A DNA stretch of 64,000 nt from Nitrospirota bacterium. Its GTDB lineage: Bacteria > Nitrospirota > Thermodesulfovibrionia > UBA6902. Under the pieces are notes generated by a model that saw nothing but the letters and a program-made list of their open reading frames with translations, did no database searches and was not told where the DNA came from. Where the stretch lies: NCBI GenBank assembly GCA_016213935.1, contig JACQZG010000009.1:647-64646 (forward strand), written 5' to 3'. Made by a program: the position numbers and the translations under genes. Shown here piece after piece: positions 29,230 through 55,084 of this stretch (positions are counted from its first letter, which is position 1; every line of letters starts with the position of its first letter).

Positions 29230-30741
29230 ATGTATAACTTTAACAGCCTCAAGTTCAAAATTTCCTTCGTTACTTTTCTCCTTATCTCCATAATAATGTC
29301 GGCAACCACATACAGGGATATCAAGTTGACAGAGCAAAAACTCATCAAAACGCAGCAGGAGAAGACTGTCCTCCTGTCTGACAGGATAGCTCACGGGATA
29401 ATGGTACTGATGCTGAAGAACAGGTGGCAGGAACTTCAGGCCATGATGCAGAATCTTGTAAAGGACAGCAATGAACTTAAGGAGATACGAATATTCCTTC
29501 CCACTGACGGGACAATAGTTGTATCCTCTGAAGAAAAAGAAATCGGGACAAAGATATACGCTGAGGATTTAATAAATTACAATAAAGGGAATTATGAGGA
29601 AGCTTTTTTGATAAATAAAGATGATTCCATTTATGCTTCAAAACTGACGCTTTTAAAAAACGCTCCTGCGTGTTTCAGGTGCCACGGGACAGAAAAGGAT
29701 GTGCTCGGAGTTATGGATGTCGAGCTCTCGCTTTTGAATGTGCATAACGCAATCGATGATTTCACCAAAGAGCATATCACGGATGCGTTTATCGGTTTTA
29801 TCATGTTAATGGGCACATTCCTCTTCTTGGTCGCGATCATGATTGACAGGCCTGTTAACAGGATGGTCAACACCATCAGAAGATTGGAGAAGGGGGATTT
29901 CTCAGCCAGAATGAACATCAGGTCTAAAGACGAGTTCGGGCTTCTCGCGGCCAGCTTTGACAATATGGTCGAGGCGCTTGAATCCGCAAAAAAAGAGCTT
30001 GAGCTTACCCATGAGATCAAGATGGAGAGGGCGGCAAAACTCGCAACTATCGGGGAGGTTGTTGCGGGCATTGCTCATGAGATAAAGAATCCTCTTACCG
30101 GAATAAGCTGCGCGGTGCAGCTTCTGCAGGTGGACATGAGCGAAGATGACAAGAACAGGGATGTCACTGAAAAGATACTGAGCCAGGTAAAGAGGCTTGA
30201 CAGGACAGTGAAAGACCTCCTTAGTTACGCCAAACCGAAGGCGGCAAAGTTTTTGCCTGCCAATATAGGCGAAGTTATTGACAGGGCAGTATTCCTTGTA
30301 TATCCGGAGGCAAAAAAACTTAACGTGAAAATCAATGCAACCGTTGCGCAAGACCTTCCTGATATCGTTATGGATACTGACCAGATGCAGCAGGTTGCGC
30401 TTAATTTGATGATAAACGCTCTGCAGGCTATGCCGGAGGGGGGCATACTGAATGTCAGCGTCTATCAGAAAAAATACAATGAAGTTCGCGATGAGTTGAA
30501 GTCCCCATTAAACTGTGAGAATGTTCTTGTTATGTCTTTTGAAGACACCGGCAAAGGGATCTCACAGGAGGACATGGAATATATTTTTGAGCCCTTTTTT
30601 ACCAGGAAATCAAAAGGGTCGGGGCTCGGGTTGTCCATAACGCAGAAGATCGTCCGTGAGCATGGCGGGGTGATTACATGCAGAAGCGCTCTTGGCAAAG
30701 GTTCTTTTTTTACGATATACTTGCCGATAACAAAGAAATAG
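29230..30741 (+). CDS. Sensor histidine kinase with periplasmic c-type-heme (CXXCH) sensor domain, HAMP, HisKA and HATPase
   Basis: TM1, ~150 aa periplasmic domain containing PACFRCHG, TM2, a HAMP domain, the H-box AHEIKNPLTGIS and the G-boxes GSGLGLSI. The sensor resembles Tll0287-like heme-c PAS-type sensor domains. Confidence 0.8.
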   Translation: MYNFNSLKFKISFVTFLLISIIMSATTYRDIKLTEQKLIKTQQEKTVLLSDRIAHGIMVLMLKNRWQELQAMMQNLVKDSNELKEIRIFLPTDGTIVVSSEEKEIGTKIYAEDLINYNKGNYEEAFLINKDDSIYASKLTLLKNAPACFRCHGTEKDVLGVMDVELSLLNVHNAIDDFTKEHITDAFIGFIMLMGTFLFLVAIMIDRPVNRMVNTIRRLEKGDFSARMNIRSKDEFGLLAASFDNMVEALESAKKELELTHEIKMERAAKLATIGEVVAGIAHEIKNPLTGISCAVQLLQVDMSEDDKNRDVTEKILSQVKRLDRTVKDLLSYAKPKAAKFLPANIGEVIDRAVFLVYPEAKKLNVKINATVAQDLPDIVMDTDQMQQVALNLMINALQAMPEGGILNVSVYQKKYNEVRDELKSPLNCENVLVMSFEDTGKGISQEDMEYIFEPFFTRKSKGSGLGLSITQKIVREHGGVITCRSALGKGSFFTIYLPITKK

Positions 30742-30744
30742 GGG

Positions 30745-32145
30745 GTGGCTGGAGTGCAAAGCGTCAAGATACTTGTTGTTGATGACGAGGAACTCATCAG
30801 ATCCTCAATAAAACAGTACCTCGAAAAAGAGGGGCATGAAGTCCTGACCGAAGGAACGGGAGAGGACGGTCTTAAGACATACAGGGCCGAACTCCCGGAT
30901 ATGGTATTTCTCGACCTTCATATGCCCGGGATAAACGGGATGGAGGTTTTGGAGGCAATTAAAAAAATAAACAAAGATACCGTTGTCATAATAATCACGG
31001 CTCACGGCGCGGTTGAGACAGCGGTATCCGCCATAAAACTCGGAGCGTTTGATTTCATAGAAAAGCCTTTTGAGTTCAGCCGGTTGTCAATTTTAATAAA
31101 AAAGGCCCTTGAAACTGTTGACCTCAAGAAAGAGGTAAATTTTTTACGGGGCGAGCAGCATCAGAAGTACAGGTTTGAAAGCATTATCTGTGAGTCCGAA
31201 ATAATGAAGAATATTATTTCGCTTGCCAAAAAGATAGCGGAAAGCGACGCAAACACGGTTTTAATACAGGGAGAGAGCGGGACCGGCAAGACCCTCATAT
31301 CAAGGGCAATTCATTACCACAGCGCGAGGGCTTCTAAACCTTTTGTCGAGATAACATGCACCGCGTTGCCCGAGACGCTTGTCGAAAGCGAGCTTTTCGG
31401 GTATGAGAAGGGAGCATTCACTGACGCTAAATCGGCAAAGAAGGGGCTTTTTGAACTGGCTGACGGAGGGACAGTCTACCTTGATGAAATAGGCGATATG
31501 AAGCCTTCCACACAGGCCAAGTTCCTTAAAGTTATTGAAGAGAAGGTCTTTATGAGGATCGGCAGCCTGAAAGAGACATCTGTTGATGTCAGGATCATCG
31601 CAACGACAAACAGGAACCTGAGGGAAGAGGTTATGAAGGGCAATTTCAGGGAGGATTTATATTACAGGCTTAATGTAATACCCATGGAGTTTCCCGCCTT
31701 GAGGAACAGAAAGGAAGATATATTGCCTACGGCCATGTATTTTCTTGAAACGATGAGGAAAGAGTGCAGAAGAAATATTACCGGCATCTCCAAAGATGTT
31801 CAGGGCCTTTTTTTAAAATACAACTGGCCCGGCAATATCAGAGAGTTGAAGAATGTTATAGAGAGGGTTTTTATTCTCGGGATCGAAGGGCAGCTTCTAC
31901 CTGAGCATCTTCCCCTTGAAATTGCCGGGGTCGGCAGGGAGGCTCCGGTTTTGGGGTCAGTTCATGATCACGATGAATTCAGGTTCCCTATTTCGGATGA
32001 CGGCATATCCATTGAAGAAGTTGAAAAAGAATTCATTATTCAGGCCCTTCGCATGACCGCAGAGAATCAAACAAAAGCGGCTAAACTTCTCGGCCTTTCA
32101 AGGGATGCCCTCAGGTACAGGATGCAGAAGTTCAAACTTCTTTGA
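30745..32145 (+). CDS. Sigma-54-dependent response regulator (NtrC/AtoC family: REC, AAA+ sigma-54 activator, Fis HTH)
   Basis: REC (ILVVDDEELIR...D at FLDLHMPG), Walker A GESGTGKTL, the GAFTDA motif and a C-terminal HTH (AAKLLGLSRDALRYRMQKF). GTG start; it follows the kinase stop by 3 nt. Confidence 0.9.
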   Translation: MAGVQSVKILVVDDEELIRSSIKQYLEKEGHEVLTEGTGEDGLKTYRAELPDMVFLDLHMPGINGMEVLEAIKKINKDTVVIIITAHGAVETAVSAIKLGAFDFIEKPFEFSRLSILIKKALETVDLKKEVNFLRGEQHQKYRFESIICESEIMKNIISLAKKIAESDANTVLIQGESGTGKTLISRAIHYHSARASKPFVEITCTALPETLVESELFGYEKGAFTDAKSAKKGLFELADGGTVYLDEIGDMKPSTQAKFLKVIEEKVFMRIGSLKETSVDVRIIATTNRNLREEVMKGNFREDLYYRLNVIPMEFPALRNRKEDILPTAMYFLETMRKECRRNITGISKDVQGLFLKYNWPGNIRELKNVIERVFILGIEGQLLPEHLPLEIAGVGREAPVLGSVHDHDEFRFPISDDGISIEEVEKEFIIQALRMTAENQTKAAKLLGLSRDALRYRMQKFKLL

Positions 32146-34043: not shown

Positions 34044-34044
34044 T

Positions 34045-35805: not shown

Positions 35806-36140
35806 CTATTAACCCAGCTAAAAATACCAGAATCCGTAATCCATGTCAAAAAGGGGGTATAAATTTAATGTCATGGAAACCCCGGTGTTACAGATGACCT
35901 TGATTTTTTTTGACATCAAATATTAATATACATTATAAAATGCTGAACAATCTTGTTAATGAGAAAGTCTGCTTACTAATTAGGCACTATATTGCAGATT
36001 CTCCGAAGTTGCGTGAAATAACGCTCCCGATTGGTTGAGTCTAATATTTTTGGAACCAAAAATTAAGTATTAAACGCCGTGTTGTGTTACAACTTGTTGA
36101 TTTATAAGTTAAATATTTTTTAACTGCAACATTGAGAATC

Positions 36141-36156
36141 TGGTATGCTAATTGCT
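36141..36156 (+). promoter_or_regulatory. Candidate sigma-54 (-24/-12) promoter upstream of the first OmcS-like gene
   Basis: TGGTATGCTAATTGCT gives GG-N10-GC spacing with the TTGC -12 element, ~150 nt upstream of the ATG at 36304. The sigma-54 activator gene is 4 kb upstream. Confidence 0.5.
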
Positions 36157-36303: not shown

Positions 36304-37299
36304 ATGAAAAAAGTACTGTTCACAATGTTCGTAGTACTTGCGGCCGCGTTCATGCTGTATGGAATCGCAGACGCAATCTCCGGCGTGTGCTCCGGATGCC
36401 ACACAATGCACAACAGTCAGGACGGCGCTGCAGTAAACGGTTCAGGCCCCGCAGACATCCTGCTCAAGAGCGACTGTATGGGCTGTCACACCACAGCGTC
36501 AGCAGTTGGACCGAGGGTTGATAATGCGACCTTGCTGTCAGCAGGCTCATTTGCAGATGCCTTTGTAACATCAGACACAAACACCCACAACGTTGAGGAC
36601 CTCGTAGGATTTAATGCCGGCGGCGCTGACGACATTCTTACCTCTAACGATCCACCGGGAGGAAGCGCGGCTGTTTTAACCAAGTTCTCTGGTGCTAACC
36701 AGTTGAAGTGCGCCGGTAGTAACGGCTGTCACGGTAGCCATGATAGTAAAGCTACAAGCTGGGCAGGCATACAGGGTTATCACCATGCAGGCGGGTCAAT
36801 CTATAAGTTCCTTGAGGTTGCTACTGACAACGAAGGCGCAGGCACCGCTGTTGCAGGCACAAAAGATTCAACCTACGAATCAGGCGGAGCAACCGCATCC
36901 AAACATAATATTTACGTGTCCGACGCGGCAACAGGCATCAGCGCATTCTGCAATAACTGCCATGATGTCTTCCACGGCGCGGCGACCACTGACCTGACCA
37001 CCAACGGCCTTTGGAACCGCCACCCGACCGATATATCAATTGCTACTTACCTTGGGGCTTCGGGTGTAACAGTTGATTATGTGAATAACCCGTTTGCATT
37101 CACAGCGGCATACGCAACCACATTAAGCACAACCTCGGCAACAGGTTATGACGCAACTAATGGTTATGTAATGTGTCTGTCTTGCCATCGCGCACACGCG
37201 TCTGAGTACGCAGACCTGCTCAGGTTTAACTATGCTTCACAGAGCGCAGGCGGCGGCGGTACAACAGGATGTCTCGGATGTCACGTGAATCAGAGGTAA
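36304..37299 (+). CDS. OmcS-like hexaheme c-type cytochrome (nanowire-type), paralog 1
   Basis: Strong RBS (AAAGGAGGAATT-ATG) and a signal peptide (MKKVLFTMFVVLAAAFMLYGIADA). The mature N-terminus [17 protein letters not shown] matches the OmcS CEGCHTMHNS start. C-terminal MCLSCHRAHASEYADLLRFNY matches OmcS NCLSCHRAHASGFDSMTRFN. Heme sites: CSGCH, CMGCH, C-x5-CH (CAGSNGCH), CNNCH, CLSCH, CLGCH. Confidence 0.75.
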   Translation: MKKVLFTMFVVLAAAFMLYGIADAISGVCSGCHTMHNSQDGAAVNGSGPADILLKSDCMGCHTTASAVGPRVDNATLLSAGSFADAFVTSDTNTHNVEDLVGFNAGGADDILTSNDPPGGSAAVLTKFSGANQLKCAGSNGCHGSHDSKATSWAGIQGYHHAGGSIYKFLEVATDNEGAGTAVAGTKDSTYESGGATASKHNIYVSDAATGISAFCNNCHDVFHGAATTDLTTNGLWNRHPTDISIATYLGASGVTVDYVNNPFAFTAAYATTLSTTSATGYDATNGYVMCLSCHRAHASEYADLLRFNYASQSAGGGGTTGCLGCHVNQR

Positions 37300-37397: not shown

Positions 37398-38609
37398 ATG
37401 ATTAAAATAATCATAAAAGAAATGGCAAGAATAAATAATACCAATAGGTATGTTTTAATATTTATTGCAGCCTTGGCTTTAGTTGCTTCTTCAGTAAATG
37501 CAAATATTACAGGCGTATGTTCAAACTGCCATACAATGCATAATAGTCAGGACGGAGCAGCTGTTGTTGGGTCAGGCCCAAACGATGTTCTTTTAACTTC
37601 AGATTGTCTTGGTTGTCACGGCCAGGGCGGCAGCCAGAAGATAATCAGTATCGGGGGAAGTGAGATTCCCCAAGTATTGCATTCTGACGGCACAGGCGAC
37701 CTTGCAGGAGGAAACTTTAATTATATCGGCACACTCGGCGACAATAGAGGCCATAACATCGTTGATCTCGTTAATGGAGATGATGTGTTAGATATACCGC
37801 CCGGGGCTGAATATGGCGAGCATGCCAATCCCGCAAAGATGGTCACTGATTCCGTGCTTACATGCGCAGGCTCTAACGGTTGCCACGGGTTTAGGGCGAT
37901 TGGAGGGAGTTCGAATCTTCAGGCATTAAAAGGGGCGCACCATAAGAATATTACAACTGATTCCACAAGCGGATTTGATGACGATTACAACAGCTATAGA
38001 TTTCTCAGGAAAGTGAAGGGGCATGAGAATGACGGGCAGGTAAATTCCTCAACAAAATGGCAGAATGCCGATGCCAATAACCATAATGAATATTTCGGCG
38101 CTACGTCTCCTCTTGAGTTTGACGCAAACTGCGCAAAGTGCCATTCAAATGCGCCGTCAGCCAACATTGTTCCCCCGCAAAATACTATGAGCGGCTTCTG
38201 CGGCACATGCCATATGAATTTTCATCTCTTAACAGGAACAGAAACCTCTGATATGGGCATAGGAGATTCAACTGTATCTCCATTCAGGAGGCACCCGACT
38301 GATGTTGTGTTGCCTGGGGCAGGTACAGAATATAATAACTATACATCGTACAGTGTGGAGGCTCCTGTAGCGAGGGGCGTGGTTCCTGACAGTATGAGCA
38401 ATGTCGTAACACCCGATAACAGCGGCGTACAGGGTGCGATTGTAATGTGCCTTTCCTGCCATAAGGCGCACGCATCTCAATATCCCGATATGCTGAGGTG
38501 GGATTATGACGGTATGGTTGTCGGCACAACCGGGGCTTCAGCCTTTTTTTCCATTGTCGATAGAAACCGCAGGTATTTATTGCATCTCAGCTTATTTATT
38601 GAAGAATAA
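37398..38609 (+). CDS. OmcS-like hexaheme c-type cytochrome, paralog 2
   Basis: Signal peptide ([27 protein letters not shown]). [26 protein letters not shown]-x5-CH (CAGSNGCH), [14 protein letters not shown] and [23 protein letters not shown]. The start is ambiguous (ATG at 37398 or 37422). Confidence 0.7.
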
Positions 38610-38647: not shown

Positions 38648-39628
38648 ATGCGTTCAATAAGACTTCAAACAAGAAAGATAATGACATTGATTAAACATGT
38701 TTTAAATCCATCTGTCATTATTGTTTTATTTGTTTTATTTGGAACAGTCAGACCTGTTTCATTAAATGCCCAGGGGCCTCTTGTCAGGTATTATATGGCA
38801 TTAGAGTATGACGAAAATGATGAGAGACTTGTCAGGCCCTCTTTTGCGCAGTATGAAAATGTAATGAATGAAATTTATGTAATTGATGCCAGGCAAAGGG
38901 TGCTGATATATACTTCTGACCTTTTTCCGGTTCTTTCACTCGGCAAGAGCCGTAAGATACTGAATCCCGAAGGTTTGACAGTTGATTCTAACGGCAATCT
39001 TTATGTTGTTCAGACAGCCACGCCTGAAGATTTGAGAAACAGGGTTTCCGTTTACAATGCCTGCCTCAAATGGGAGCGTGATATCTTTTTTGAGGGCTTT
39101 GAAGGCGCTGATAAATTTGTGCCGTATCGCCTTGCAAAAGATTCAAAGGGCAATCTTTTTGTTGCAGGAATACGCTTCCCGGGAGTTCTGATATTTGATG
39201 CTGATTATAACTTGGTAGAAATAATATCTCCGCAGGAAAATGATAGGAAGGCGTTGATTATGAATGTCCATATTGATGACACGGGCCGGATATATCTTGT
39301 AAGCGAGGAAGAAGGGCATATTTATGTTTATGATGAAAATCGAAAGTTCATCTATCAGTTTGGGGAAAAAGGCGGCAGTTCCGGCAAGTTGAGCAGGCCG
39401 CGTGCCGTGGCAGTTGATAATAACAGGGGATGGCTTTATGTCGTTGATTATATGAGACACACGGTCAATACATATGACCGCAACGGCATGATGTTATTCG
39501 AGTTTGGCGGAATGGGATGGGGAGAAGGCTGGTTCAGGTTCCCTACAGACATTAGCGTTAATAAGGAAGGCGATGTGATGGTTACAGACCTTTTTAACCA
39601 GAGAGTACAGATCTTTAAGCCTTACTGA
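38648..39628 (+). CDS. Secreted NHL-repeat beta-propeller protein
   Basis: Signal peptide and repeated NHL-like units (SNGNLYVVQ..., RPRAVAVDNNRGWLYVVDYMRHTVNTYDRNG, VMVTDLFNQRVQIFKP). Confidence 0.8.
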   Translation: MRSIRLQTRKIMTLIKHVLNPSVIIVLFVLFGTVRPVSLNAQGPLVRYYMALEYDENDERLVRPSFAQYENVMNEIYVIDARQRVLIYTSDLFPVLSLGKSRKILNPEGLTVDSNGNLYVVQTATPEDLRNRVSVYNACLKWERDIFFEGFEGADKFVPYRLAKDSKGNLFVAGIRFPGVLIFDADYNLVEIISPQENDRKALIMNVHIDDTGRIYLVSEEEGHIYVYDENRKFIYQFGEKGGSSGKLSRPRAVAVDNNRGWLYVVDYMRHTVNTYDRNGMMLFEFGGMGWGEGWFRFPTDISVNKEGDVMVTDLFNQRVQIFKPY

Positions 39629-39642
39629 CGGTTGAAAATTTC

Positions 39643-41244
39643 ATGTCAATATTATTTTGCAATTTGAGGCGGTTTTTCAGAAATAAAAATTTGGTGTTGT
39701 GTATTATTATTTTTATATACGGCTGCTCCATCGTTTTAAATGATAATAGTGTAACTGAAGACCAGAAGCCTCCCGATTACAACAGCCAGATAACGCTTTA
39801 TTTTAATGGCCATGAGAAGACATCTCTTGATTTGGAATTTCTTTTAACCGGGGTTGACATGGTTTTTGTTGATGGAACATCAATAGGGATTCTTAAAGGG
39901 CCTGTAACATTGAGGTCATCTGAAGTTAAGGGCAGGCAGGTGCGCCTTGGCGAGATATATGTCCCTGAAGGCGAATGCAAAGAAGTCCGTTTGCATATCA
40001 CTAAAGCATCGATAATAACCCCTGACGGCACTGCATCACTTTCAATTTCTTCAGATACGGTATCCATGCCTTTTAATCTTGTCATTAAAAGGAGGCAAAA
40101 TTCCACGCTATTTTTAAATTGGAACCCTGACGGGTCTGTGACAGATAACTATCTTTTTACCCCTTTGTTCTATTTGGGAAAAGAGGCCCCAGACCTTATT
40201 GGTCAGCTTCTGTATGTTACCAATGAAGATTCTAATAATGTGTCGGTCATAAACCGGTATTACGGCAAGGTCGTCGGAACCGTGCTCGTAGGCAAAAGGC
40301 CGAGGGGTATTGCCGCTGGATTGAAGGAAGACCGGTTAAGGGTATATGTTGCAAATTCAGGTTCAAACAGCGTATCGGTAATTGATCCCAATACAAATAC
40401 AGTAGAACATGAAATCCCTTTAAGATTCGGTAGGGAACCGGTCGCGATTGCTGTTGCGAAAGGGCCTTTTGGGAGAGAACTCGTTTTCGTGGCTAATTAT
40501 GCTTCCGGCTCGGTATCTGTGATAGACCCTTTATCTTTTCAGGAGCTTGAGAGAGTCGGGGTCGGAAACGGGCCTGTGGCTGTAGCCGCGGATCCTCCCG
40601 TCGAATTTTATTCTGGTTCCGCATCTCTCAGCATTGAAGAGGTTAACTTAATAAAAGATTATAGAGGCAAATTTGTTAATGTCTATGTTGCCAATAAAGA
40701 GTCAAACAGCGTATCAGTAATTCGAATGGACATGCTTAATAACAGGGTGGAAGATGTTCAGAATGTCGCTGTTGAATGGAGCCCTGTCGCATTGTCCGTT
40801 GACTTCAAAAGAGGCAAAGTCTATGTCGCAAATTACGGCTCTGACAGGCTGTCTGTCATAGATATCGTATCGCTAATACGCGGGGATGGTTCTGCAGAAA
40901 TAAGCTCAATTGAAAATACCGGCCGTTACACAGTGGGAGTCGCAACCAATCCATTCATTGACAGGCTCTACCTGCTTAAATCCGTCTCGTCCGAAGTTTT
41001 ATTTTTAAACCCTTATTCTGATGCAGGAAATGATATATTTTCTGTATCAGGCTCTGTAATGGGTATTGCCGCAACAGGTCTTTCGCCGAGATCATTACAA
41101 TTTGACCTTCAATCCAGAAATCTCTTTGTGGTTAACAGCGGCTCCGACAGCGTTTCAATCATTGACGTCACTACCCGTAATGAAAAAAAGAGAATTTCCG
41201 TGGGGCGTAATCCTTACGGCGTAACAATGTTCTCGGTGAAATGA
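39643..41244 (+). CDS. YVTN-family beta-propeller repeat lipoprotein
   Basis: Lipobox (IFIYGC). Repeated ~40 aa units of the YVTN type (LYVTNEDSNNVSVINRYYGKV, VYVANSGSNSVSVIDPNTN, VFVANYASGSVSVIDPLSF, VYVANKESNSVSVI, LFVVNSGSDSVSIIDVTT). Confidence 0.75.
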   Translation: MSILFCNLRRFFRNKNLVLCIIIFIYGCSIVLNDNSVTEDQKPPDYNSQITLYFNGHEKTSLDLEFLLTGVDMVFVDGTSIGILKGPVTLRSSEVKGRQVRLGEIYVPEGECKEVRLHITKASIITPDGTASLSISSDTVSMPFNLVIKRRQNSTLFLNWNPDGSVTDNYLFTPLFYLGKEAPDLIGQLLYVTNEDSNNVSVINRYYGKVVGTVLVGKRPRGIAAGLKEDRLRVYVANSGSNSVSVIDPNTNTVEHEIPLRFGREPVAIAVAKGPFGRELVFVANYASGSVSVIDPLSFQELERVGVGNGPVAVAADPPVEFYSGSASLSIEEVNLIKDYRGKFVNVYVANKESNSVSVIRMDMLNNRVEDVQNVAVEWSPVALSVDFKRGKVYVANYGSDRLSVIDIVSLIRGDGSAEISSIENTGRYTVGVATNPFIDRLYLLKSVSSEVLFLNPYSDAGNDIFSVSGSVMGIAATGLSPRSLQFDLQSRNLFVVNSGSDSVSIIDVTTRNEKKRISVGRNPYGVTMFSVK

Positions 41245-41288
41245 GATTTTCCAAATAAACGGTTACTATTGTTAATCAGCAGGGAACA

Positions 41289-43529
41289 GTGAGTAATAGA
41301 CGTTTAATAAACGCTCTTCTTTTTTTGATTTTATTTATCGGCGGTTCCTCGGCAGTCTTCGCTGACCTGAACGGAAACGCAAGCATTGACTATACCTCGT
41401 TTCAGGAGGATAGGGGCGATGCCAGTATTACCCAAAACGATACTCAGAAGCGTCTAAATTTCTATTTCACTAAACCGATAACCTCCCTTCTTTCTTACCA
41501 GCTAACTTTGAGGGCTGAGATTTCCGATTCTGATTCCAGTGATTCACAGGGCGCTGATTATACCTCTCTTAAGGAAGTCTATGAACCCGGAATAGATTTT
41601 TCGCTTAAAAATGTTATGTACGAATTCGATTCGGGGTTTCATCACAGAGATGAGCTTTATTCTAATTCAGGACAGGCTTATGATAACAAAAGAATCACTG
41701 ATTTTTTCTACAGCCGGTTTGCTGTCAGCCCTCTTAATCTCCCCACTTTTTCCGCTGAACTTAGCAGGATTAAGGAAAGCGATAACATCATGCTCGACAG
41801 GCAAAACAGTATTTATTTTTTGAGGTCATCTTATGAACTGCCTTCTCCCGAGCTTGACTTCAGGGCAAATCTCAATTATTCACATGCAGAAGAAGAGAAC
41901 CCCGGGAAAATATTGTATAAAAACGTCAGCGATGCTTACTCCGGTGATTATCAGTTATCTGATTCACGCATTTTTTTGTCTGGGAAAATAATACTAAATG
42001 GAAGTTACAGGGGCAATTTCAGCAGTGCCGACAGCACGAGTTATTCCTCAGATACCGGATATGTCCTCTTTGAGCGCACCAAACTCGGCGGCCTCCACGC
42101 AAAAGGAACGGCGCTGAATCCTGACGTTGACAGTTTGCCTTCTGAAACAGCTCTTGCTGATGATAATTATATTCTTTCGACATCAATTAATCTCAGCATA
42201 TCAGGTTCTGACGAATATCATAATATAGGGATTTGGGTGCCTTCTGACGATTCTGTCGAGAAACTGTACATTTACGTTAACAAAGATGTAACAGGCGATT
42301 TTTCTTTAAAAAGCATCTCGAACTGGAAAGTCTATAAGAGCGATTTTAACCTGGCAGGCACATGGCTTCCGGTAACGATCAGCAGTGTTTCGGTTTCTCT
42401 ATTTGATCTTGCAAACACCATTTATCGTTACGAAATCGAATTTTCAGCTCCGCATAATGCGAGATATTTCAAAGCGGTTAACATGGATGTCTCCGATATT
42501 TCCAATGTTGCTGTCACAGAGATAGAGGCTTACGGGTCAGAACTCATTCCTGATTCCGGAATATTGACGAGCTCTTCTAACGCACTCGGCCAGAGGCTGG
42601 ATTTTTTATCGGTCTTTCAGCCATTAAGCAAATTCAGATTTAGTTTTAATTATTCGATTGATAAGTCTGACCAGAATCCGTCATCTGTTTTTAGCTCGAT
42701 CACATCTCTTTTTACAAGCATTTTTTCCAAATCAAGGAGCGAAGAAGATCAATCTGATTCCAGCAGCACAATCAATAAAGGCCTCGCACTTAATGCAAAC
42801 TGGTTAACTCATAAATTTCTCACGACCAATTTTCGTTTTCAGCGGAATGAATCATATGACAATGCCTTTAAGACTGATAGGGCGGCTACTACTTATGAAC
42901 TATCTTTTAATTCATCGCCGATTGAAACGCTTAACGCAAGTTTTAGTATGGTAAGAGGGGATAGTTATCAATTTGAAGTAAAAGAGTCGACATATGATTC
43001 GGCAATATTAAGCCTTGGCACCCGATTATACAGGGATTTGAATATGGTGACGGATATAGGATATTCACGGTCTGACTCCGTAAGCGGGGGAGATTCAACT
43101 TCAAGGTATATTTCAGGTAGCATTGATTCGGTTTTTACAGATAAATTGGAGGGTAGCTTGAGCTACAATATAAACTGGAAATCGTCTGGGGAATCAGAAG
43201 TTCAGTCAAAAAGCAGTTCGGCAAAGATAACCTATCGTCCAGGCAGATTTGTTAATTTATCCTGTGATTTTAATTATTCTTCTAATGACGCAGGTTCCGC
43301 CATGTCGGAAATAATAACTGCGGAATGGCGGCCTGTCCCCGTTTTGCAGTTGAATGCCAATTACCAGCACTCAAGTACAAGCTCAGCGAGTATTACAAAG
43401 GATGTTTTTTCGGGCAACGGCACATGGCATATTAAAAAGTTTTTACATGCGCAGCTTTCATTTTTATATGAGAAAGAAGGCGAAAGCACGGAACAGAATG
43501 TCAGTACCGGCATGAGATTATTGTTTTAA
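41289..43529 (+). CDS. Large Ser/Asp-rich secreted protein, predicted outer-membrane beta-barrel (porin-like)
   Basis: Signal peptide (ALLFLILFIGGSSAVFA). 746 aa with alternating polar/aromatic beta-strand-like segments and a C-terminal ...TGMRLLF (terminal Phe, typical of OM beta-barrels). Confidence 0.5.
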   Translation: MSNRRLINALLFLILFIGGSSAVFADLNGNASIDYTSFQEDRGDASITQNDTQKRLNFYFTKPITSLLSYQLTLRAEISDSDSSDSQGADYTSLKEVYEPGIDFSLKNVMYEFDSGFHHRDELYSNSGQAYDNKRITDFFYSRFAVSPLNLPTFSAELSRIKESDNIMLDRQNSIYFLRSSYELPSPELDFRANLNYSHAEEENPGKILYKNVSDAYSGDYQLSDSRIFLSGKIILNGSYRGNFSSADSTSYSSDTGYVLFERTKLGGLHAKGTALNPDVDSLPSETALADDNYILSTSINLSISGSDEYHNIGIWVPSDDSVEKLYIYVNKDVTGDFSLKSISNWKVYKSDFNLAGTWLPVTISSVSVSLFDLANTIYRYEIEFSAPHNARYFKAVNMDVSDISNVAVTEIEAYGSELIPDSGILTSSSNALGQRLDFLSVFQPLSKFRFSFNYSIDKSDQNPSSVFSSITSLFTSIFSKSRSEEDQSDSSSTINKGLALNANWLTHKFLTTNFRFQRNESYDNAFKTDRAATTYELSFNSSPIETLNASFSMVRGDSYQFEVKESTYDSAILSLGTRLYRDLNMVTDIGYSRSDSVSGGDSTSRYISGSIDSVFTDKLEGSLSYNINWKSSGESEVQSKSSSAKITYRPGRFVNLSCDFNYSSNDAGSAMSEIITAEWRPVPVLQLNANYQHSSTSSASITKDVFSGNGTWHIKKFLHAQLSFLYEKEGESTEQNVSTGMRLLF

Positions 43530-43534
43530 TAATA

Positions 43535-44164
43535 ATGCGCAATAATGAAGCTTTAAATAAAAATATCAATGGGTTATATTATTCTATGTTTAATTCGGCA
43601 ATCAGGCATGGTTCATTGATTTTTCGTTTTTCGTTTTTATTATTTTTTGTAACATACGGGTGCAGCGTTATGAGCGCGTATGTAAGGCCCGGATTTGATA
43701 AAGCTTCAGTGAAAAAAATAGCGGTTCTTCCTTTTGAAAATTATACCGAAGATAAATTTGCAGGCCAGAAGATGAGGGCTAAGGTTATGATCGAGCTTCT
43801 TAATTCCGGATTCGAGGTTGTGGAAGAGGGGGAGGTTACAAGGATATTGAAGGAGTTAAAAGTGTATCAGGTCGCATCAATAACCGTTTCAGACATTCAG
43901 GAACTTGGCAAGAGGCTCGGCATTGACGCGGTGGTTAAAGGTTCAACAGGGGAGATGGAAGATAAGAAAGGCGTAGCCTTAACATATCCTGAAGTATCCA
44001 TTAATTTAAGCATACTCGATGCAAAATCCGGAGATATTGTCTGGTCCGTGTCGCATAGTGCCGGCGGTCCGAGTTTCTGGACAAGGCATTTTGGAACAGA
44101 GGGGGATACCCTGGATAAGGCCGCTTATAAAGTTGTAAAAGAGTCTATTAATACATTAAAATAA
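43535..44164 (+). CDS. Small lipoprotein, paralog family member 1 (hypothetical)
   Basis: Lipobox (FVTYGC). KIAVLPFENYT ... GIDAVVKGS; similar to the next two genes. An alternative start is the ATG at 43586. Confidence 0.5.
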   Translation: MRNNEALNKNINGLYYSMFNSAIRHGSLIFRFSFLLFFVTYGCSVMSAYVRPGFDKASVKKIAVLPFENYTEDKFAGQKMRAKVMIELLNSGFEVVEEGEVTRILKELKVYQVASITVSDIQELGKRLGIDAVVKGSTGEMEDKKGVALTYPEVSINLSILDAKSGDIVWSVSHSAGGPSFWTRHFGTEGDTLDKAAYKVVKESINTLK

Positions 44165-44182
44165 ACACATTTATATAATATA

Positions 44183-44779
44183 ATGAACTTAATATTGAAG
44201 TTGAAATATAATACAATTTTTATTTATCTAATAATTGGCTGTTCGTTTTTTTTAAACGGATGCTTCGCCTCTCAACCGACATATCATATTAAGGAGGATG
44301 TTGATTTCAGTTATATAAAAAGGGTAGCTATATTGCCGTTGCAGAATTTTACCAGCGACAAAAACGCTTCTGATGCGGTTAGGCAGGTGCTTATCACAGA
44401 ATTTTTGTCTTCAGGGTTGGCCGATGTTGTTGTCCCGGGAGACGTTCTGGCTGCCCTTAATAATATAGGCGTTAGCTCTATTTCCTCTCCAAGTATTGAA
44501 GAAATAAGATCAATCGGAAAATTTCTGAAAGTACAAGCTGTCATTACGGGTTCTGTAGACAAATTAGCTGAGATCAGGAGCAGTAATGTTACTTCGGCCG
44601 AGGTTACTTTGACTTTAATGATGGTGGACACAGGAGCAGGCGATATTCTCTGGTCCGTAACGGCCACAAGCGGCGGGGCAGGCTTTATGTCAAGGCATTT
44701 TGGCGCTGATACCCCGACATTGAGTGAAACGATTTCAGATGTTGTAAAAAGGTCTATTCAGACATTGACAGGGAATTAA
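44183..44779 (+). CDS. Small lipoprotein, paralog family member 2 (hypothetical)
   Basis: Lipobox (LNGC). RVAILPLQNFTSD ... VQAVITGSV ... ILWSVT ... HFGADTPTL parallels member 1. Confidence 0.5.
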   Translation: MNLILKLKYNTIFIYLIIGCSFFLNGCFASQPTYHIKEDVDFSYIKRVAILPLQNFTSDKNASDAVRQVLITEFLSSGLADVVVPGDVLAALNNIGVSSISSPSIEEIRSIGKFLKVQAVITGSVDKLAEIRSSNVTSAEVTLTLMMVDTGAGDILWSVTATSGGAGFMSRHFGADTPTLSETISDVVKRSIQTLTGN

Positions 44780-44819
44780 TTTTTACTTGCTGTGTGTAAT
44801 ATAATGTGTGTAATATAAT

Positions 44820-45896
44820 ATGATGCCTAAATCAGACAGACTGACTTCTTTTTTTTCTTTAGTTAAATTTTCTTTACTGTTGCATAGTTTTTTGTTTTTC
44901 TTTTTGTTGTGCGACGGTATTGTCTTTGCCCAAGCAGTCACTGATATTAAGGAAGCCGATCAGAAAATAATCATATTTCCTTTTGATAATTATAGCGATA
45001 AGGTAGAAGCCGCTGACATTGTCATGCCTGTTCTCGTGGATAGTTTTATAAATAGAGGGTATAAAGTCATTGATGAAAAATTGCTTTATGACTTTTTATG
45101 TAAAGAGAAAGTAAGGGAAACAGGGTATATCTCAAGGGATCTTGCGAGAAAATTAAGAGATAAATTCGGGGTTGATTTTATTCTGGTTGGAGCGATTATC
45201 AGATTTGCTAATATTGACGTTCCTGATTTGGGTTTGACGGCAAGGCTTGTTGATGCTTCAAACGGCAACATCTTATGGGCTGATTATTCCTCAGCTGCTG
45301 GAGATGACTTTACAGCCGTATTAGGATTGGGGAATGTAAGGGAGATTGAAATGCTCGTTTCCATGGTGATCAATAATCTTTTGGCGTCATTCAGCTTAGA
45401 ACCTTTTGGCAAGCATGCCGAATCAGCTTACAAGATAGCGGTAATGCCTTTTCAGAATGATTCTGAAAATAAGGATGCCGGAATGATAGCCTCACAGTTT
45501 TTTATAGTTTCTTTGTTTAAAAGCAAAAGCTTTATCCCTGTTGAATACGGTGAAATTAAAACAAATATTTTTGATCTAAAGTTAAGGACAAAAGGTGAGC
45601 TGGATTATAGAAGTGTCAGCGAGTTAATGGAAAGGCTGAATGTTGATGGTTTTGTTATAGGCACAGTTGAACTATATTCCGAAGGGCAGAGGCTGCTTTC
45701 TCCCCCTGCGGCCGCAGTAACCGCAAGACTTCTGAATGCGCGTAACAGCAGGATGCTATGGTATAACAGGTACCAAATGACCGGTGATGATGATGTTATA
45801 ATTTATGATTGGCGCAGACTCAGGAGCGTTGATAAGGTTGCAAACAGGATAATTTCAAAACTTGTTAATGGGATGGGAGCTATTCAATGGCAGTAG
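44820..45896 (+). CDS. Secreted protein with two tandem copies of the same lipoprotein-family domain
   Basis: KIIIFPFDNYSD...ILWADYS and KIAVMPFQNDSEN...MLWYNRY are two repeats of the module seen in the two preceding genes. Confidence 0.5.
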   Translation: MMPKSDRLTSFFSLVKFSLLLHSFLFFFLLCDGIVFAQAVTDIKEADQKIIIFPFDNYSDKVEAADIVMPVLVDSFINRGYKVIDEKLLYDFLCKEKVRETGYISRDLARKLRDKFGVDFILVGAIIRFANIDVPDLGLTARLVDASNGNILWADYSSAAGDDFTAVLGLGNVREIEMLVSMVINNLLASFSLEPFGKHAESAYKIAVMPFQNDSENKDAGMIASQFFIVSLFKSKSFIPVEYGEIKTNIFDLKLRTKGELDYRSVSELMERLNVDGFVIGTVELYSEGQRLLSPPAAAVTARLLNARNSRMLWYNRYQMTGDDDVIIYDWRRLRSVDKVANRIISKLVNGMGAIQWQ

Positions 45897-47521
45897 AGCG
45901 CGGGATAAAATTTATTATTAATAGCCGATATCTGCAATATATTTTTGCTGGTATCTTATTGATTTTTATAACATATGGCTGCGCTTCAGTAAGACAGGCT
46001 CAGAGCGTATTGGCAATTGTTGACGGTGAATCCATAACAATTGATGACGTTAATTACGCGTTGGCAATTGAGCATAGAAGGGAGAATCTTTCAGCTACAG
46101 AAAAATTGGATATAAAAGGCTTCATTGATTCCATTATCGGCGACAAACTTATTATACAGGAGGCCCGCAGAATTGGTTTGGACCAGTACCTTGAGGTTAA
46201 AGACAAGCTGAAGGCATATATTCTCAGGGAATCTGTGGTGAAACTTCATGAGGATGAGATTGTTAAAAAAGTGAATGTTAGTGATGAGGAGATTCTTAAT
46301 TATTACAAAGACAATTACAAACGAATTACATATGATATTGTCGAATTAAACACAATGGAAGATGCGCTGAGCATATTAAACAGGCTTAACGAGGGCGAAG
46401 ATTTTAAGGAGATAGCTCTTACACTGCCTAATTATGAAGCAAAGGATAAAGAGAGGGTTTCAACCTTTGGTTCTTTTGATAAACTTTTTCAGGAAAAGAT
46501 TTCCGATCTGGGCACGGGTGAATTCAGCGACGTTATTGAGTTAAATAATAGTTTTTACATTATCAAGATACTTGGCAGGGAGGATGCTCCGCCTGAAAAG
46601 TTTTCAGAAGCAGCGAGCCATATTACCAAGATTATAAGAAACAAGAAGGAGGATGACAGGGGGAATGAATATCTCTCTGAACTGCGGGCTGCCTCTAACA
46701 TTGTAATTGATAATGAGATTCTCTCTTCCATTAAATTGCTGAAAGGAGAAGATGAGCGGGATAAGTGGGTTAATGACACCAGTCCTCTTGTTGTTTTGGA
46801 CGGAGAGATTTTCACTGTCAAGGATTTTATATTTGTTCTTCCTCCCGTTGTTAAAATTTCTAACGAAGTTTTGATAAAAAACTGGATTGACAGAAAGATT
46901 GTTGACAGAGAGGCTTTGTCAAGAAATTACAATCTTGATCCTGAACTAAGCCGTTACAGGGATCAGGTTTTTAAAAATGTTTACATTAAGGAATATGTTT
47001 TGCCAAATATAAATGTTTCCGAGGATCTCCTGAGGAATTATTATAACGAGCATTTAGATAATTATATGGAACCTCAACGTTACAGGATGCAGGTGATTAC
47101 TGCAGAGACAAAGGAGTCTGCTGAAGCGATTTACGACAGCCTTTTAAAAGGTGCTGATTTTGCATGGCTTGCGAAAATGAGGTCAACCGATGTTAAAACT
47201 GCCGAAAAAGGGGGGAATCTGGGCTGGCAGGCTATTTCGTTATTGCCTAAGCCGTTAATAGAGGTTATTGATTCCATTGAAGCTGAGGGAATAAGCCCGG
47301 TACTGTCAGTAGACTCAGTATATGCCATCTACAGGGTCCAGGAAAAGGCCGCTCCACTGGTTAAGGATTTTAATTCAGTAAGACAGGATGTTTACAGGTC
47401 ATATTTTGCAGAGCAGTTTAAAAAATCATATAATGAATATATAGAAAAATTAAAGTCAGACGCCGAGATAATTATCAATGAGAATGCAATCAAGTCATTT
47501 GCTGAAATGTTTAAACCGTAG
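45887..47521 (+). CDS. SurA/PpiC-type peptidyl-prolyl cis-trans isomerase lipoprotein (periplasmic chaperone-like)
   Basis: Lipobox (ITYGC), a SurA-N-like helical region and a C-terminal parvulin domain (LLKGADFAWLAKMRSTD...GGNLGW...). Confidence 0.65.
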   Translation: MAVERGIKFIINSRYLQYIFAGILLIFITYGCASVRQAQSVLAIVDGESITIDDVNYALAIEHRRENLSATEKLDIKGFIDSIIGDKLIIQEARRIGLDQYLEVKDKLKAYILRESVVKLHEDEIVKKVNVSDEEILNYYKDNYKRITYDIVELNTMEDALSILNRLNEGEDFKEIALTLPNYEAKDKERVSTFGSFDKLFQEKISDLGTGEFSDVIELNNSFYIIKILGREDAPPEKFSEAASHITKIIRNKKEDDRGNEYLSELRAASNIVIDNEILSSIKLLKGEDERDKWVNDTSPLVVLDGEIFTVKDFIFVLPPVVKISNEVLIKNWIDRKIVDREALSRNYNLDPELSRYRDQVFKNVYIKEYVLPNINVSEDLLRNYYNEHLDNYMEPQRYRMQVITAETKESAEAIYDSLLKGADFAWLAKMRSTDVKTAEKGGNLGWQAISLLPKPLIEVIDSIEAEGISPVLSVDSVYAIYRVQEKAAPLVKDFNSVRQDVYRSYFAEQFKKSYNEYIEKLKSDAEIIINENAIKSFAEMFKP

Positions 47522-47537
47522 GTCAACAGCTTATCGT

Positions 47538-49490
47538 ATGTATATTTCAAAAATATCATTGTTATTTTTTTGCCTGATAATCTTTACTGTATTATCTTGC
47601 GCTCCTGCAACTCAGAAGTCTGCAAAAGGCCGTTTTAAGCAGAAAGAGTGTCTTGATTGCCATGAAGAGATACAGCCTGACTTGAAACGCCGAATTGTGC
47701 ATATTCCTTTACAAGAGCACAATTGCGAAGGATGCCATCTTCGTCACGGAAGGCTGGCTTTTAAATCATTTATAGAACGTGAAGAAAGAAAACTTTGCTT
47801 TATATGCCATACTGTCATGGAATCGGATATTCTGAAAAGAAAGCATGTTCATACGGTAATTCAAGAGAATAAATGCCTGCCATGCCATGAACCTCATGCT
47901 TCTGAGGCCCAGGCTCTTCAGAAGAATGCCGGGAACAGTCAATGTTTTGGATGCCATAATGATGCTACGTTTAAACGCGCGACTCGGCATAAACCCGTTG
48001 AAGACGGGTGCCTTATTTGTCATGATCCGCATGGGTCTGACTATAAGTCTAATCTTATTAAAGATGAGGTAGCTCTTTGCGAATCATGCCACAAGTTTAA
48101 TGAAAAGAATTTTATCGCAGCTCACAATAATTATCCAGTCGGCAAGGGCACTTGTATGGGCTGCCACACTCCGCACAGTTCGTCAAACAGCAAACTTCTC
48201 AGAGAGTATGTGCATGCGCCGGTCAGTAATATTGAGTGTTCTTCATGCCATCTGCCTTCTGAAGGCCCTAACCCCCTTTCGGTTTCATCAGTAGAAGGAA
48301 ATCTCTGCTATTCATGCCACACAAAAGAGAAAAAAGATTTCAATAAAAATTACAGACACCTCGTGGCCGAAAAGGAAGAGTGTTTGAAATGCCATAGCCC
48401 TCATGCATCTGATTATCCCAAAATCACCATTAAAAACAATGTGGATTTATGTTTAATGTGTCACGACAAGAAACCAAATGTAAACGTTAATAATTTACAT
48501 AGCCCGATAAGAAATAAAGGTTGTACCGCTTGTCATGACTCTCATGCTTCTGATAACCGGCTTTATCTTACTGCTCCTGAAAATGAGATATGTTTTACCT
48601 GCCATGAGGCTCTTAAGGATATGCTGAAAGAGGAGAATATACATGAACCCTTCATGAAGATTGAATGCCTGAAATGCCATGATACCCATGGCAGCAACTA
48701 TGCCGGCATGCTGAAGGTAACAGCCGAAGACCTTTGTTTCACCTGCCATAAAGATGAACAGAAGAATTACTTTAGAACATATATTCATACTCCTGTTAGC
48801 AATAAGAAATGTTCTTCTTGCCACCAATCTCATGTTTCTAAATTTAAGAAGCTGCTCACCGATGACCCTGAAAATATATGTATGAAATGCCATCAGGGCT
48901 TGGTTCAGGAGGAAGAAGGCATTTTTATCCACCAGCCGTTTAAGGAGAAAAAATGCAGTGTTTGCCATGATCCGCATGCAAGTGATAATATCGCTTCAAC
49001 TGTAAAACCTATGACTGAGCTTTGCTTCACATGCCATAAAAATATGGGGGAAGCATTAAACAAGTCTCTTAATAAGCATCTTCCCGTTGAGGAAGGGAAA
49101 TGCAATTCCTGTCATAATTCCCACTTGTCAAAAATAAAGAATCAACTCCTTAATCTTCCGAATGCTCTTTGCCTTACTTGCCATGAAAGGATAATTACGA
49201 CTACATCAAGAAGCGGACATATTGCAACTGAAGGCGTGGATTGCCTGAATTGTCATATATCTCATTATTCTGATTCTAATACGCTTTTAAAAGGTAAAGA
49301 CCCTGACATATGCCGTAAGTGCCACTCTGCAGATACTGAAAATCTTTTAAGGGTTCATAAGTCTCCGCTTGATGATATTTCCCGTTGTTCAAGCTGTCAC
49401 GAACCGCATGTTACTGAAAAGCCAGGGCTTCTGAAGAAAGTTGTTCATGACCCATTCAACCAAGGGCATTGTGAGGCATGTCATGAATAG
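47538..49490 (+). CDS. 26-heme c-type cytochrome lipoprotein built from ~13 doubled-CXXCH units
   Basis: Lipobox (FTVLSC) and 26 CXXCH motifs counted. The repeating unit is CxxCH-x(~20, with internal His)-CxxCHxxH(A/G/S)S, as in the paired-CXXCH family. Confidence 0.8.
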   Translation: MYISKISLLFFCLIIFTVLSCAPATQKSAKGRFKQKECLDCHEEIQPDLKRRIVHIPLQEHNCEGCHLRHGRLAFKSFIEREERKLCFICHTVMESDILKRKHVHTVIQENKCLPCHEPHASEAQALQKNAGNSQCFGCHNDATFKRATRHKPVEDGCLICHDPHGSDYKSNLIKDEVALCESCHKFNEKNFIAAHNNYPVGKGTCMGCHTPHSSSNSKLLREYVHAPVSNIECSSCHLPSEGPNPLSVSSVEGNLCYSCHTKEKKDFNKNYRHLVAEKEECLKCHSPHASDYPKITIKNNVDLCLMCHDKKPNVNVNNLHSPIRNKGCTACHDSHASDNRLYLTAPENEICFTCHEALKDMLKEENIHEPFMKIECLKCHDTHGSNYAGMLKVTAEDLCFTCHKDEQKNYFRTYIHTPVSNKKCSSCHQSHVSKFKKLLTDDPENICMKCHQGLVQEEEGIFIHQPFKEKKCSVCHDPHASDNIASTVKPMTELCFTCHKNMGEALNKSLNKHLPVEEGKCNSCHNSHLSKIKNQLLNLPNALCLTCHERIITTTSRSGHIATEGVDCLNCHISHYSDSNTLLKGKDPDICRKCHSADTENLLRVHKSPLDDISRCSSCHEPHVTEKPGLLKKVVHDPFNQGHCEACHE

Positions 49491-50778: not shown

Positions 50779-50906
50779 TTCAAGCATTATCGTACGAGCA
50801 GTTATTATTTGCTGACACCAGATTTAATAAACAGTCTTCGTGAATGCTTTTCCAATATTAACCACGGCATGGTTGTCTTTGGGTAAATAGTTCTTTACTT
50901 CTGTTT

Positions 50907-51926: not shown

Positions 51927-51949
51927 CAGGCTTGGTTTATTGTCATAAT

Positions 51950-53230: not shown

Positions 53231-53248
53231 ATCTTTGGAGACAACAAA

Positions 53249-53500
53249 GTGAAAAATTTTTTTACAGCATCTGTGTTTGTTTTATTTTTGGTATTCTGCA
53301 TAACTACATATCCTGCAGCGGATGCTTTAAAGTCATCTGCAGAGATTGAGCAGGAGATAAAAATTAAAATGAACGCACATATTGAAAAAGTAAAACATAA
53401 AAACCCTGAAAAAATTCAGTCTTTGATGCAAAAGACCGGCAATAAAATAACAGGATGTTTAAGCTGCCATGATGACCTCCTTGGCAACAAAAACAAATAG
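53249..53500 (+). CDS. Small monoheme c-type cytochrome
   Basis: GTG start with a GGAGA RBS. Signal peptide and a single C-terminal CLSCH. Confidence 0.55.
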   Translation: MKNFFTASVFVLFLVFCITTYPAADALKSSAEIEQEIKIKMNAHIEKVKHKNPEKIQSLMQKTGNKITGCLSCHDDLLGNKNK

Positions 53501-53621
53501 CTTCAACATCTTCTGCCTTAAATTGCAGTTTATATATGTGCGATAACTCATATTACTGCGTGAAATTGCACAATTAATCTGTTTTTTAGGTCAAAATTGA
53601 TAGAAAAATAAGCATGTTGCC

Positions 53622-55068: not shown

Positions 55069-55084
55069 TATAGGGGGTGGAAAT

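Follow-up and report, generated by a model that had tools for sequence, protein, structure and literature searches.

The window analysed here is a stretch of 64,000 nucleotides from a Nitrospirota bacterium (assembly GCA_016213935.1, contig JACQZG010000009.1, positions 647 to 64,646). At positions 29230–32145 of the window, the open reading frame (ORF) list gives two plus-strand genes with 3 bp between them, which are predicted to encode a heme-binding sensor histidine kinase and a sigma-54 enhancer-binding response regulator. This pair, and the multiheme cytochrome genes downstream that it is predicted to control, are the subject of the present analysis.

The kinase gene (29230..30741, plus strand) was assigned on the basis of its ORF, Pfam domains, family analysis, a structure model and a fold search. 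The 503 aa product is laid out as a first transmembrane segment (TM1), a periplasmic heme-c single-Cache domain (residues ~26–185), a second transmembrane segment (TM2), HAMP, HisKA and HATPase_c. Hydropathy placed the membrane segments at about residues 6–27 and 182–209, flanking a periplasmic domain of ~160 aa, and Pfam placed HAMP at 207–251, HisKA at 275–337 and HATPase_c at 382–501. The phospho-acceptor histidine is H283, within the sequence AHEIKNPLT, and the HAMP domain, H-box and ATPase domain were all found. An earlier sequence-only reading of this DNA had placed a CXXCH in the periplasmic domain, and its position is exact: codons 29671..29685 (plus strand) encode the c-type heme attachment motif C148-F-R-C-H152, identified by sequence, alignment and model. 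The codon of Met61 (29410..29412, plus strand) specifies a residue that is invariant in the family and aligns with a Met-Met pair of the Geobacter sensors GSU0582 and GSU0935 (alignment; PMC8396549).

The activator gene (30745..32145, plus strand; Pfam, NCBIfam and alignment) encodes 466 aa; translation may in fact begin at the GTG at 30754. The full architecture of receiver (REC), sigma-54 AAA+, lid and HTH_8 domains was present, so the NtrC-type activator proposed as the partner of the kinase stands. In Pfam the protein matched Response_reg (E 1e-30), Sigma54_activat (E 1e-67), AAA_lid_14 and HTH_8 (E 1.4e-12, residues 423–463). Its motifs include the phospho-acceptor D57, the Walker A sequence GESGTGK at 176 and the loop GAFTDA at 223; D13, D14 and D57 were invariant in a four-sequence alignment, two members of which were orthologues. 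Activator orthologues share 58–78% identity, and the GAFTDA loop was present in every one whose sequence was read (related loci L007, L009, L030 and L045), whereas a neighbouring paralogue carries GAFTGA. This loop is listed among the variants expected to keep activation and is present in the D. vulgaris activator DVU2106 (PMC4641369). The best NCBIfam matches of the activator were AtoC, NtrX and NtrC, all well under the equivalog cut-offs (for AtoC, 448 against 714 bits). Indeed, for both proteins the best matches were to NtrB/NtrC-type systems (AtoS/AtoC, ZraS/ZraR and NtrX), with which the pair has in common a phosphorelay, a Fis-type helix-turn-helix (HTH) and dyad-symmetric sites, but from which it differs in input domain, in target genes and in having GAFTDA rather than GAFTGA, with matches far under the equivalog cut-offs.

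Taken alone, the window's periplasmic sequence gave sub-threshold Pfam matches (PF21563, 14.5 bits, E 0.045; the Tll0287-like family PF11845, E 0.19). A word-indexed search returned only three close relatives, annotated as proteins of Nitrospirota metagenome-assembled genomes (MAGs), and the only match to the single kinase sequence in a search of genome contigs was an unrelated Clostridium kinase. A four-sequence profile recovered 324 representative proteins at E ≤ 1e-3 when used in exhaustive HMMER searching. CxxCH was found in 150 of 156 aligned homologue stretches; five of the six exceptions were fragments ending short of the motif, and the sixth, P0038, spans the region yet is without it. 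This retention indicates that the motif in the window is not a chance occurrence. In an alignment of 41 sensor sequences, which share 21–66% identity with the window protein, invariance was confined to one methionine (Met61) and the two cysteines and the histidine of the motif. Compared with the PDB, the 41-member profile matched 3B42 (GSU0935, E 1.7e-14) and 3B47 (GSU0582, E 5.5e-11) over nearly their full length, with both the CxxCH and the axial-Met position aligned; Met61 falls on a Met-Met pair of these structures that contains Met60, the one-to-one match within the pair being ambiguous. Individually, 40 of the 41 members matched PF21563 (best 5e-11). Membership of the window sensor in PF21563 is therefore drawn from the family profile, because the single sequence scores under the Pfam cut-off.

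An AlphaFold model of the sensor reached a predicted local distance difference test (pLDDT) score of 96 with the 41-sequence alignment, compared with 40 when four sequences were used. The model has Cache topology: a long helix at the N-terminus precedes the alpha/beta core, and the motif sits on a short helix flanked by strands (in sensor numbering, C123–H127 on helix 121–127, between strands 108–118 and 133–142). The best Foldseek matches were the single-Cache sensors WalK, CitA and KinD, plus 3B42; the large root-mean-square deviation of the model from 3B42 fits the domain-swapped helices in that crystal form. The family profile, the conserved motif, the model and the literature together uphold the description of the protein as a sensor with a predicted covalently bound heme, and comparison at the sequence level supports its placement as a heme-‘PAS’ type domain, now understood as a single Cache with heme c of the GSU0582/GSU0935 family (PF21563, Mcp40H-20_sensor or ‘sCache_heme’). 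The sequence-only reading had paired this description with Tll0287, which was rejected as the closest family since its structure (5B82) matched the profile far more weakly (E 0.51). Tll0287/DUF3365 proteins, which bind nitric oxide (NO), belong to the same broad superfamily of heme-c Cache domains and carry the CxxCH at the same position (PMC12889525), and are only weakly similar here. A 2026 preprint has reclassified the superfamily comprising DUF3365/Tll0287 and GSU0582/GSU0935 as heme-containing Cache domains (PMC12889525). The window domain shares with GSU0582 and GSU0935 the domain family, the Cache-type fold, the CxxCH on an inserted helix and the aligned methionine. Those two proteins are chemoreceptors, whereas the window domain feeds a HAMP–HisKA kinase and a transcription activator. 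Their c-type heme is high-spin when oxidised and becomes low-spin on reduction, probably through binding of Met60 (PMC3460858, PMC8396549).

Two sigma-54 type promoters were identified downstream of the pair by pattern, matrix and conservation, both at positions given in the sequence-only reading. The first, TGGTATGCTAATTGCT (36141..36156, plus strand), reads TGGTAT-N5-TTGCT, with GG at 36142–3 and GC at 36154–5, and precedes OmcS-like cytochrome gene 1. The second, TGGCATATGTTTTGCT (53622..53637, plus strand), reads TGGCAT-N5-TTGCT, is the best-scoring site of the window and precedes an orphan receiver gene. Exactly two matches to the strict pattern TGGYAY-N5-TTGCW, at 36141 and 53622, were found on both strands of the 64 kb; both are intergenic, on the plus strand and upstream of plus-strand genes, with GG and GC 10 bp apart. 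The expected number of strict matches in the window was 0.39, and at least two occurred in 7 of 100 shuffles. A scan with a sigma-54 matrix likewise ranked the two sites at the top (17.0 and 14.7), but the scores themselves lie within the random range, random windows having a mean maximum of 15.2. Since random maxima and 7% of shuffles reach them, the two promoters are suggestive only within the window, and become convincing because they are conserved in related loci. In the region 35.8–36.3 kb, good-quality sigma-70-like sites were found on the minus strand only, directed toward divergent Wzy_C-family genes. The transcript from the first promoter is predicted from the sequence to start near 36167, which would leave a leader of ~137 nt before the ATG at 36304.

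A third promoter had been proposed in the form of a weak GG-N10-GC element at ~29140 (TTGGCAGTCCGCAGGCAC) before the kinase gene. It did not hold up, scoring 9.5 as one of 26 window sites with scores of at least 9, no better than chance, and the regions preceding orthologous kinase genes had no comparable site (median best score 1.0). A TATAAT-like box lies at most ~15 nt from the kinase start codon in the window (29195–29229) and in its two closest relatives, L011 and L014. This position makes a sigma-70 type promoter likelier for the kinase–activator operon, and the sequence suggests a very short or absent leader.

By eye, both window promoters were seen to share an upstream 10-mer, TGCGTGAAAT, of which L007 carries two similar sites in tandem. 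The resulting dyad pattern TGYGYRAAATWDCRC picked out two candidate enhancers (upstream activator sites) in the window: TGCGTGAAATAACGC (36010..36024, plus strand), 130 bp upstream of the first -24/-12 site, and TGCGTGAAATTGCAC (53557..53571, plus strand), 64 bp upstream of the second. These were the only exact matches in the window, with one more at one mismatch that falls inside a gene. The candidate enhancer is 15–16 bp long, and the consensus of 18 tabulated dyads, TGTGTGAAATTACACA, is an imperfect palindrome of the TGT-N10-ACA type.

When metagenomes were scanned with aligned kinase orthologues, 80 loci were retrieved, ~35 of them with kinases 46–71% identical over the full length; L007 was an extra locus taken from the contig of a homologue, and the contigs of the closest homologues, P0001 and P0003, end within the kinase gene. 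Wherever the contig reaches far enough, an activator gene follows the kinase gene, and the mapped activators were 52–78% identical to that of the window. An OmcS-like cytochrome gene is the next same-strand gene after the pair in L007, L015, L032, L040 and L043, and in L032 the gene order is that of the window (OmcS-like, NHL, beta-propeller, 746-aa protein). The closest relative, L011 (kinase 71%, activator 78% identical), has FabG, TPR, kinase, activator and Wzy genes as in the window, and its contig then ends. In L028 (8145–8939) and L030 (4286–5050) the same pair, promoter and dyad are followed by an OmcE-like tetraheme cytochrome, for which the L030 protein matched 7TFS (the OmcE filament, E 2.5e-20) and 9YUQ, another multiheme assembly (E 3.8e-22). 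Behind the distant pairs of L045–L049 (kinase ~32% identical) come three small cytochromes, then a 405–417 aa OmcS-like gene and NHL proteins. The closest named relatives of the bacteria carrying this arrangement were Nitrospirota.

Every kinase–activator–cytochrome locus had one outstanding plus-strand sigma-54 site in its intergenic region, with a score of 14.1–18.1; in the first set of intergenic regions examined the next-best score was at most 8.1. Thirteen such sites were tabulated in related loci. When 12 regions were aligned on the promoter, TGG..A and TGC were essentially the sole invariant positions against a background of 40% mean identity. The dyad lies upstream of the promoter in one or two copies, 18–23 bp apart, mostly at a distance of 114–177 bp and in L028 at 254 bp. 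Sigma-54 sites that score 14 or more and have a dyad (one mismatch allowed) 40–200 bp upstream were counted on both strands of 771 kb, comprising the window and 90 loci, with Markov shuffles as background. Eleven co-occurrences were found compared with 0.05 per shuffle set, an enrichment of about 200-fold, and all 11 lay past the activator gene, on the same strand as the kinase. The dyad had been defined without nine of the regions (L013, L015, L028, L030, L032, L040, L043, L045 and L049). Among 15 distinct lineages with at least ~500 bp past the activator gene, 10 showed a -24/-12 site and dyad downstream of the pair, and at promoter–dyad loci the downstream gene, where on the contig, was an OmcS-like or OmcE-like cytochrome.

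Further sites and genes were noted at some of these loci. Directly after the activator gene, L045 (12617), L049 (10921), L046 (5314) and L047 (12995) have a second sigma-54-like site (13.9–15.5) that precedes three small triheme cytochromes, with dyad-like sequences (two mismatches) ~130–150 bp downstream rather than upstream. In L030 an NHL-repeat protein follows the OmcE-like gene. In L001, which carries the kinase orthologue of a Nitrospirota MAG, a 920-aa NHL/FG-GAP/BACON protein near the kinase is preceded by a strong sigma-54-like site, TTGGCATGTTTTGTGCA (2919–2935, minus strand, score 16.1).

The first presumed target in the window begins with OmcS-like multiheme cytochrome 1 (36304..37299, plus strand), which starts at the ATG at 36304, behind AAGGAGG, and not at the GTG at 36169. 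Its only PDB sequence match was OmcS (6EF8/6NEF, E 1.5e-9), including the blocks CxGCHTMHNS and CLSCHRAHAS. OmcS-like multiheme cytochrome 2 follows (37419..38609, plus strand, start approximate; ORF and Pfam). The OmcS-like proteins of the window (36304–38609) and of L007 (4753–5313) have five CxxCH and a conserved CAGSNGCH/CAGTYGCH segment, a possible sixth heme site in which five residues separate the cysteines. The rest of the tightly packed gene run behind this promoter extends over 38648..53500 (plus strand, gaps of at most 128 bp) and encodes NHL and beta-propeller proteins, a 746-aa protein without a Pfam match that is possibly located in the outer membrane, three GNA1162/LpoB-like lipoproteins, a PpiC/SurA-like chaperone, a cytochrome with 7 hemes and a monoheme protein of 83 aa. 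After the chaperone and lipoproteins lie two cytochromes with paired-CXXCH repeats, with 26 CxxCH (47478–49490, plus strand) and 16 CxxCH (49441–50778, plus strand). A third OmcS-like gene (50907–51926, plus strand) has an in-frame TAA at 51591–51593, within a heme-binding motif (FFC-A-stop-C-H-GNFH), after which the frame runs on to 51926; this represents either a recent nonsense mutation, making the gene a pseudogene, or a sequencing error. Scanning the window against Rfam gave only two tRNAs, and no riboswitch was found in the leaders of the cytochrome operons. In this the window leaders differ from that of Geobacter omcS, which is preceded by a cyclic GMP-AMP (cGAMP) riboswitch.

The second presumed target begins 22 bp after the end of the 53622 promoter with an orphan single-domain response-regulator receiver of 127 aa (53660..54043, plus strand; domain scans). 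Behind it (54166..57911, plus strand) are genes for two c-type cytochromes, one with 7 hemes and the next with 6 hemes and a C-terminal membrane anchor, and then for a cytochrome b (Ni_hydr_CYTB) and a protein with 3 hemes. Two like modules of an anchored 6-heme cytochrome c and a Ni_hydr_CYTB cytochrome b, resembling Cbc-type quinol oxidoreductases, occur at 55037–57077 and 61530–63420; upstream of the latter, neither a sigma-54 site nor a dyad was found.

Other neighbours of the pair include two tandem Wzy_C/PglL-like membrane proteins of the O-antigen or protein O-glycosylation ligase family (32175–35805, minus strand), which may hint at a link to surface-cytochrome glycosylation or to an envelope glycan. 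The possibility that the enhancer serves these divergent genes was set aside: their strand is without a sigma-54 site and has good sigma-70-like sites. Directly upstream of a TPR gene and the kinase lie the fatty-acid synthesis genes fabF, acpP and fabG (26004–28327, minus strand), and a CHASE2-domain adenylate/guanylate cyclase is located at 1366–3447, among housekeeping genes.

Two Geobacter sulfurreducens systems resemble parts of this locus. In the cbcBA operon, a sigma-54 promoter is followed by two small genes and then by the receiver GSU0596, cbcB and cbcA, and induction of the operon at falling redox potential depends on the REC–sigma54–HTH protein BccR (GSU0598) (bioRxiv 10.1101/2021.04.15.440034); no sensor kinase for BccR is named in the literature searched. 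The window has in common with BccR/cbcBA the REC–sigma54–HTH activator, the sigma-54 promoter, the receiver gene, the anchored multiheme cytochrome c and the cytochrome b, the likeness of 53660–57077 to cbcBA being one of layout and domain types. The differences are that BccR divergently adjoins its operon, whereas the window activator is 21 kb away and has a nearer second target in the OmcS-like operon, and that a heme-c kinase gene sits in the activator's own operon. In the second system, the kinase GSU2507 (Cache_1) and the sigma-54 regulator GSU2506 stand beside GSU2505 and omcS (GSU2504), and loss of GSU2507 alters cytochrome and pilin transcript levels (PMC10599522, PMC11077965). Here too the likeness, a kinase and sigma-54 activator pair beside an OmcS gene, is one of layout. 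The pairs differ in that the sensor of GSU2507 (621 aa) is a non-heme Cache_1 domain and GSU2506 contains a PAS domain in addition. An NHL-repeat gene is also located beside GSU2507, GSU2506 and omcS. No enhancer or sigma-54 promoter for omcS was described in the literature searched, and searches for a regulator of OmcS-like genes in Nitrospirota returned nothing relevant. Because of these two Geobacter precedents the kind of circuit is already known, as are the kinds of its parts; no description was found, in the literature searched, of the heme-c input, the enhancer or, outside Geobacter, the link to OmcS-like or OmcE-like genes.

The conserved neighbourhood and the conserved arrangement of promoter and enhancer in many divergent genomes agree with the earlier proposal that the pair controls the cytochrome island. 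From these sequence comparisons it appears probable that the heme-c kinase and the sigma-54 activator switch on the neighbouring OmcS-like operon and the genes behind the 53622 promoter through the dyad and the sigma-54 promoters. In such a circuit, the periplasmic single-Cache domain would carry one covalent c-type heme, ligated on the proximal side by His152 and on the distal side probably by the invariant Met61. By analogy with GSU0582 and GSU0935, a change of heme state, in which reduction binds the methionine and oxidation, NO or carbon monoxide (CO) displaces it, would move helices leading into TM2 and HAMP. The movement would alter autophosphorylation at H283 and thereby phosphotransfer to D57 of the activator, whose AAA+ domain would then assemble, and the activator would bind the dyad upstream of the sigma-54 promoters and open them by ATP hydrolysis. 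The targets would be promoter 36141, ahead of the OmcS-like operon, and promoter 53622, ahead of the orphan receiver and possibly of the cbcBA-like cytochrome c and b genes behind it. We infer that the activator is the dyad-binding protein, because the two are cis-linked across lineages, and infer likewise the direction of regulation and the extents of the transcripts. On the Geobacter analogy, the redox or ligand state of the heme would set kinase activity, with periplasmic redox poise as the favoured signal.

Several observations weigh against this circuit. The Wzy_C-family genes, which are convergent with the activator gene and divergent from the operon, part the activator from its presumed OmcS-like target, and the second presumed target is 21 kb from the activator gene. 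The gap of 122 bp between the receiver and the cytochrome genes contains a hairpin (54046–54075) that was noted by eye and was not reported by a terminator scan, and that may limit the second transcript. No rpoN was found among the window ORFs scanned, which took in only part of those at 1–27 kb. On the side of method, the sigma-54 matrix, built from the published consensus, is approximate, the dyad pattern was written from four sites (two in the window and two in L007), and the window sensor on its own falls short of the PF21563 gathering cut-off of 27 bits. Lastly, five of the 15 lineages (L009/L034, L023/L024, L027, L035 and L044) are without a cytochrome gene or a promoter–dyad pair beside the activator; in L009/L034 a glycosyltransferase follows the activator on a short contig. 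The association is therefore frequent and not universal.

A different input to the same circuit is the alternative that survives best. The heme-c Cache would in that case be a sensor of NO (or CO) and the cytochrome operons would answer nitrosative or gas signals, a reading we regard as rather unlikely. Members of the heme-Cache superfamily fused to signalling domains are reported to show NO-sensor and not oxygen-sensor properties (PMC12889525), NO and CO displace the axial methionine in GSU0582 and GSU0935 (PMC3460858, PMC8396549), and 20 of the 41 sensor family members also gave weak Tll0287-like matches. However, the genes presumed to be regulated encode extracellular-type and membrane electron-transfer cytochromes rather than NO-detoxifying enzymes. 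The midpoint potentials of GSU0582 and GSU0935 are -156 and -251 mV, and a redox-linked spin/ligand switch was proposed as their signal (PMC8396549), while the Geobacter analogue BccR answers falling redox potential (bioRxiv 10.1101/2021.04.15.440034).

It is considerably less probable that the pair controls other genes, such as the Wzy_C/PglL-like glycan genes, with another activator serving the cytochrome promoters and the adjacency being incidental. A Wzy_C-family gene adjoins the activator in both the window and L011, the glycosyltransferase of L009/L034 is of family GT2, sigma-54 is often tied to functions of the cell exterior (PMC3162934), and activator-rich genomes can cross-regulate, L002 and L040 having a second kinase–activator pair beside the first. 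The orientation of the Wzy genes toward the activator gene and the sigma-70-like sites on their own strand nevertheless speak against such control. Likewise, in 10 of 15 lineages members of this activator orthogroup are followed by the promoter and dyad, whether the cytochrome is OmcS-like or OmcE-like, which is the pattern expected of a cis-linked regulator and target. That the -24/-12 matches arose by chance and that the cytochrome operons use ordinary sigma-70 promoters is hardly credible, since the matrix scores and strict matches fall within reach of random sequence but TGG..A..N..TGC is invariant in the 12 aligned regions despite their diverged flanks, the dyad co-occurs far above shuffles, and no good plus-strand sigma-70 candidate was found in 35.8–36.3 kb.

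Beyond the local control by heme-c kinase and sigma-54 activator, a broader role can be put forward tentatively. The pair might be a widely conserved master switch for OmcS/OmcE-type nanowires, their NHL and beta-propeller partners and a cbcBA-like low-potential quinol oxidoreductase, in which the heme samples periplasmic carriers and so gauges the backlog of electron export, the cell tuning its export apparatus to match. If this were true, it would provide the missing sensor for BccR-type regulation, together with an enhancer predicting such regulons in uncultured bacteria.

The cues for building extracellular cytochrome filaments and for switching membrane quinol oxidoreductases are poorly understood. 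In Geobacter the activator BccR is known, with no sensor named for it in the literature searched, and the pair beside omcS is barely characterised. The present locus and its relatives offer a complete and testable chain, consisting of a heme-c sensor, a kinase, a sigma-54 activator, a candidate enhancer of 15–16 bp and -24/-12 promoters, and this chain recurs in about 10 other uncultured bacteria across two families of filament cytochromes, OmcS-like and OmcE-like. If the circuit is as proposed, expression of the sensor domain alone could reveal the potential or ligand that triggers nanowire genes, and the signature of enhancer and promoter could predict extracellular-electron-transfer regulons in metagenomes.

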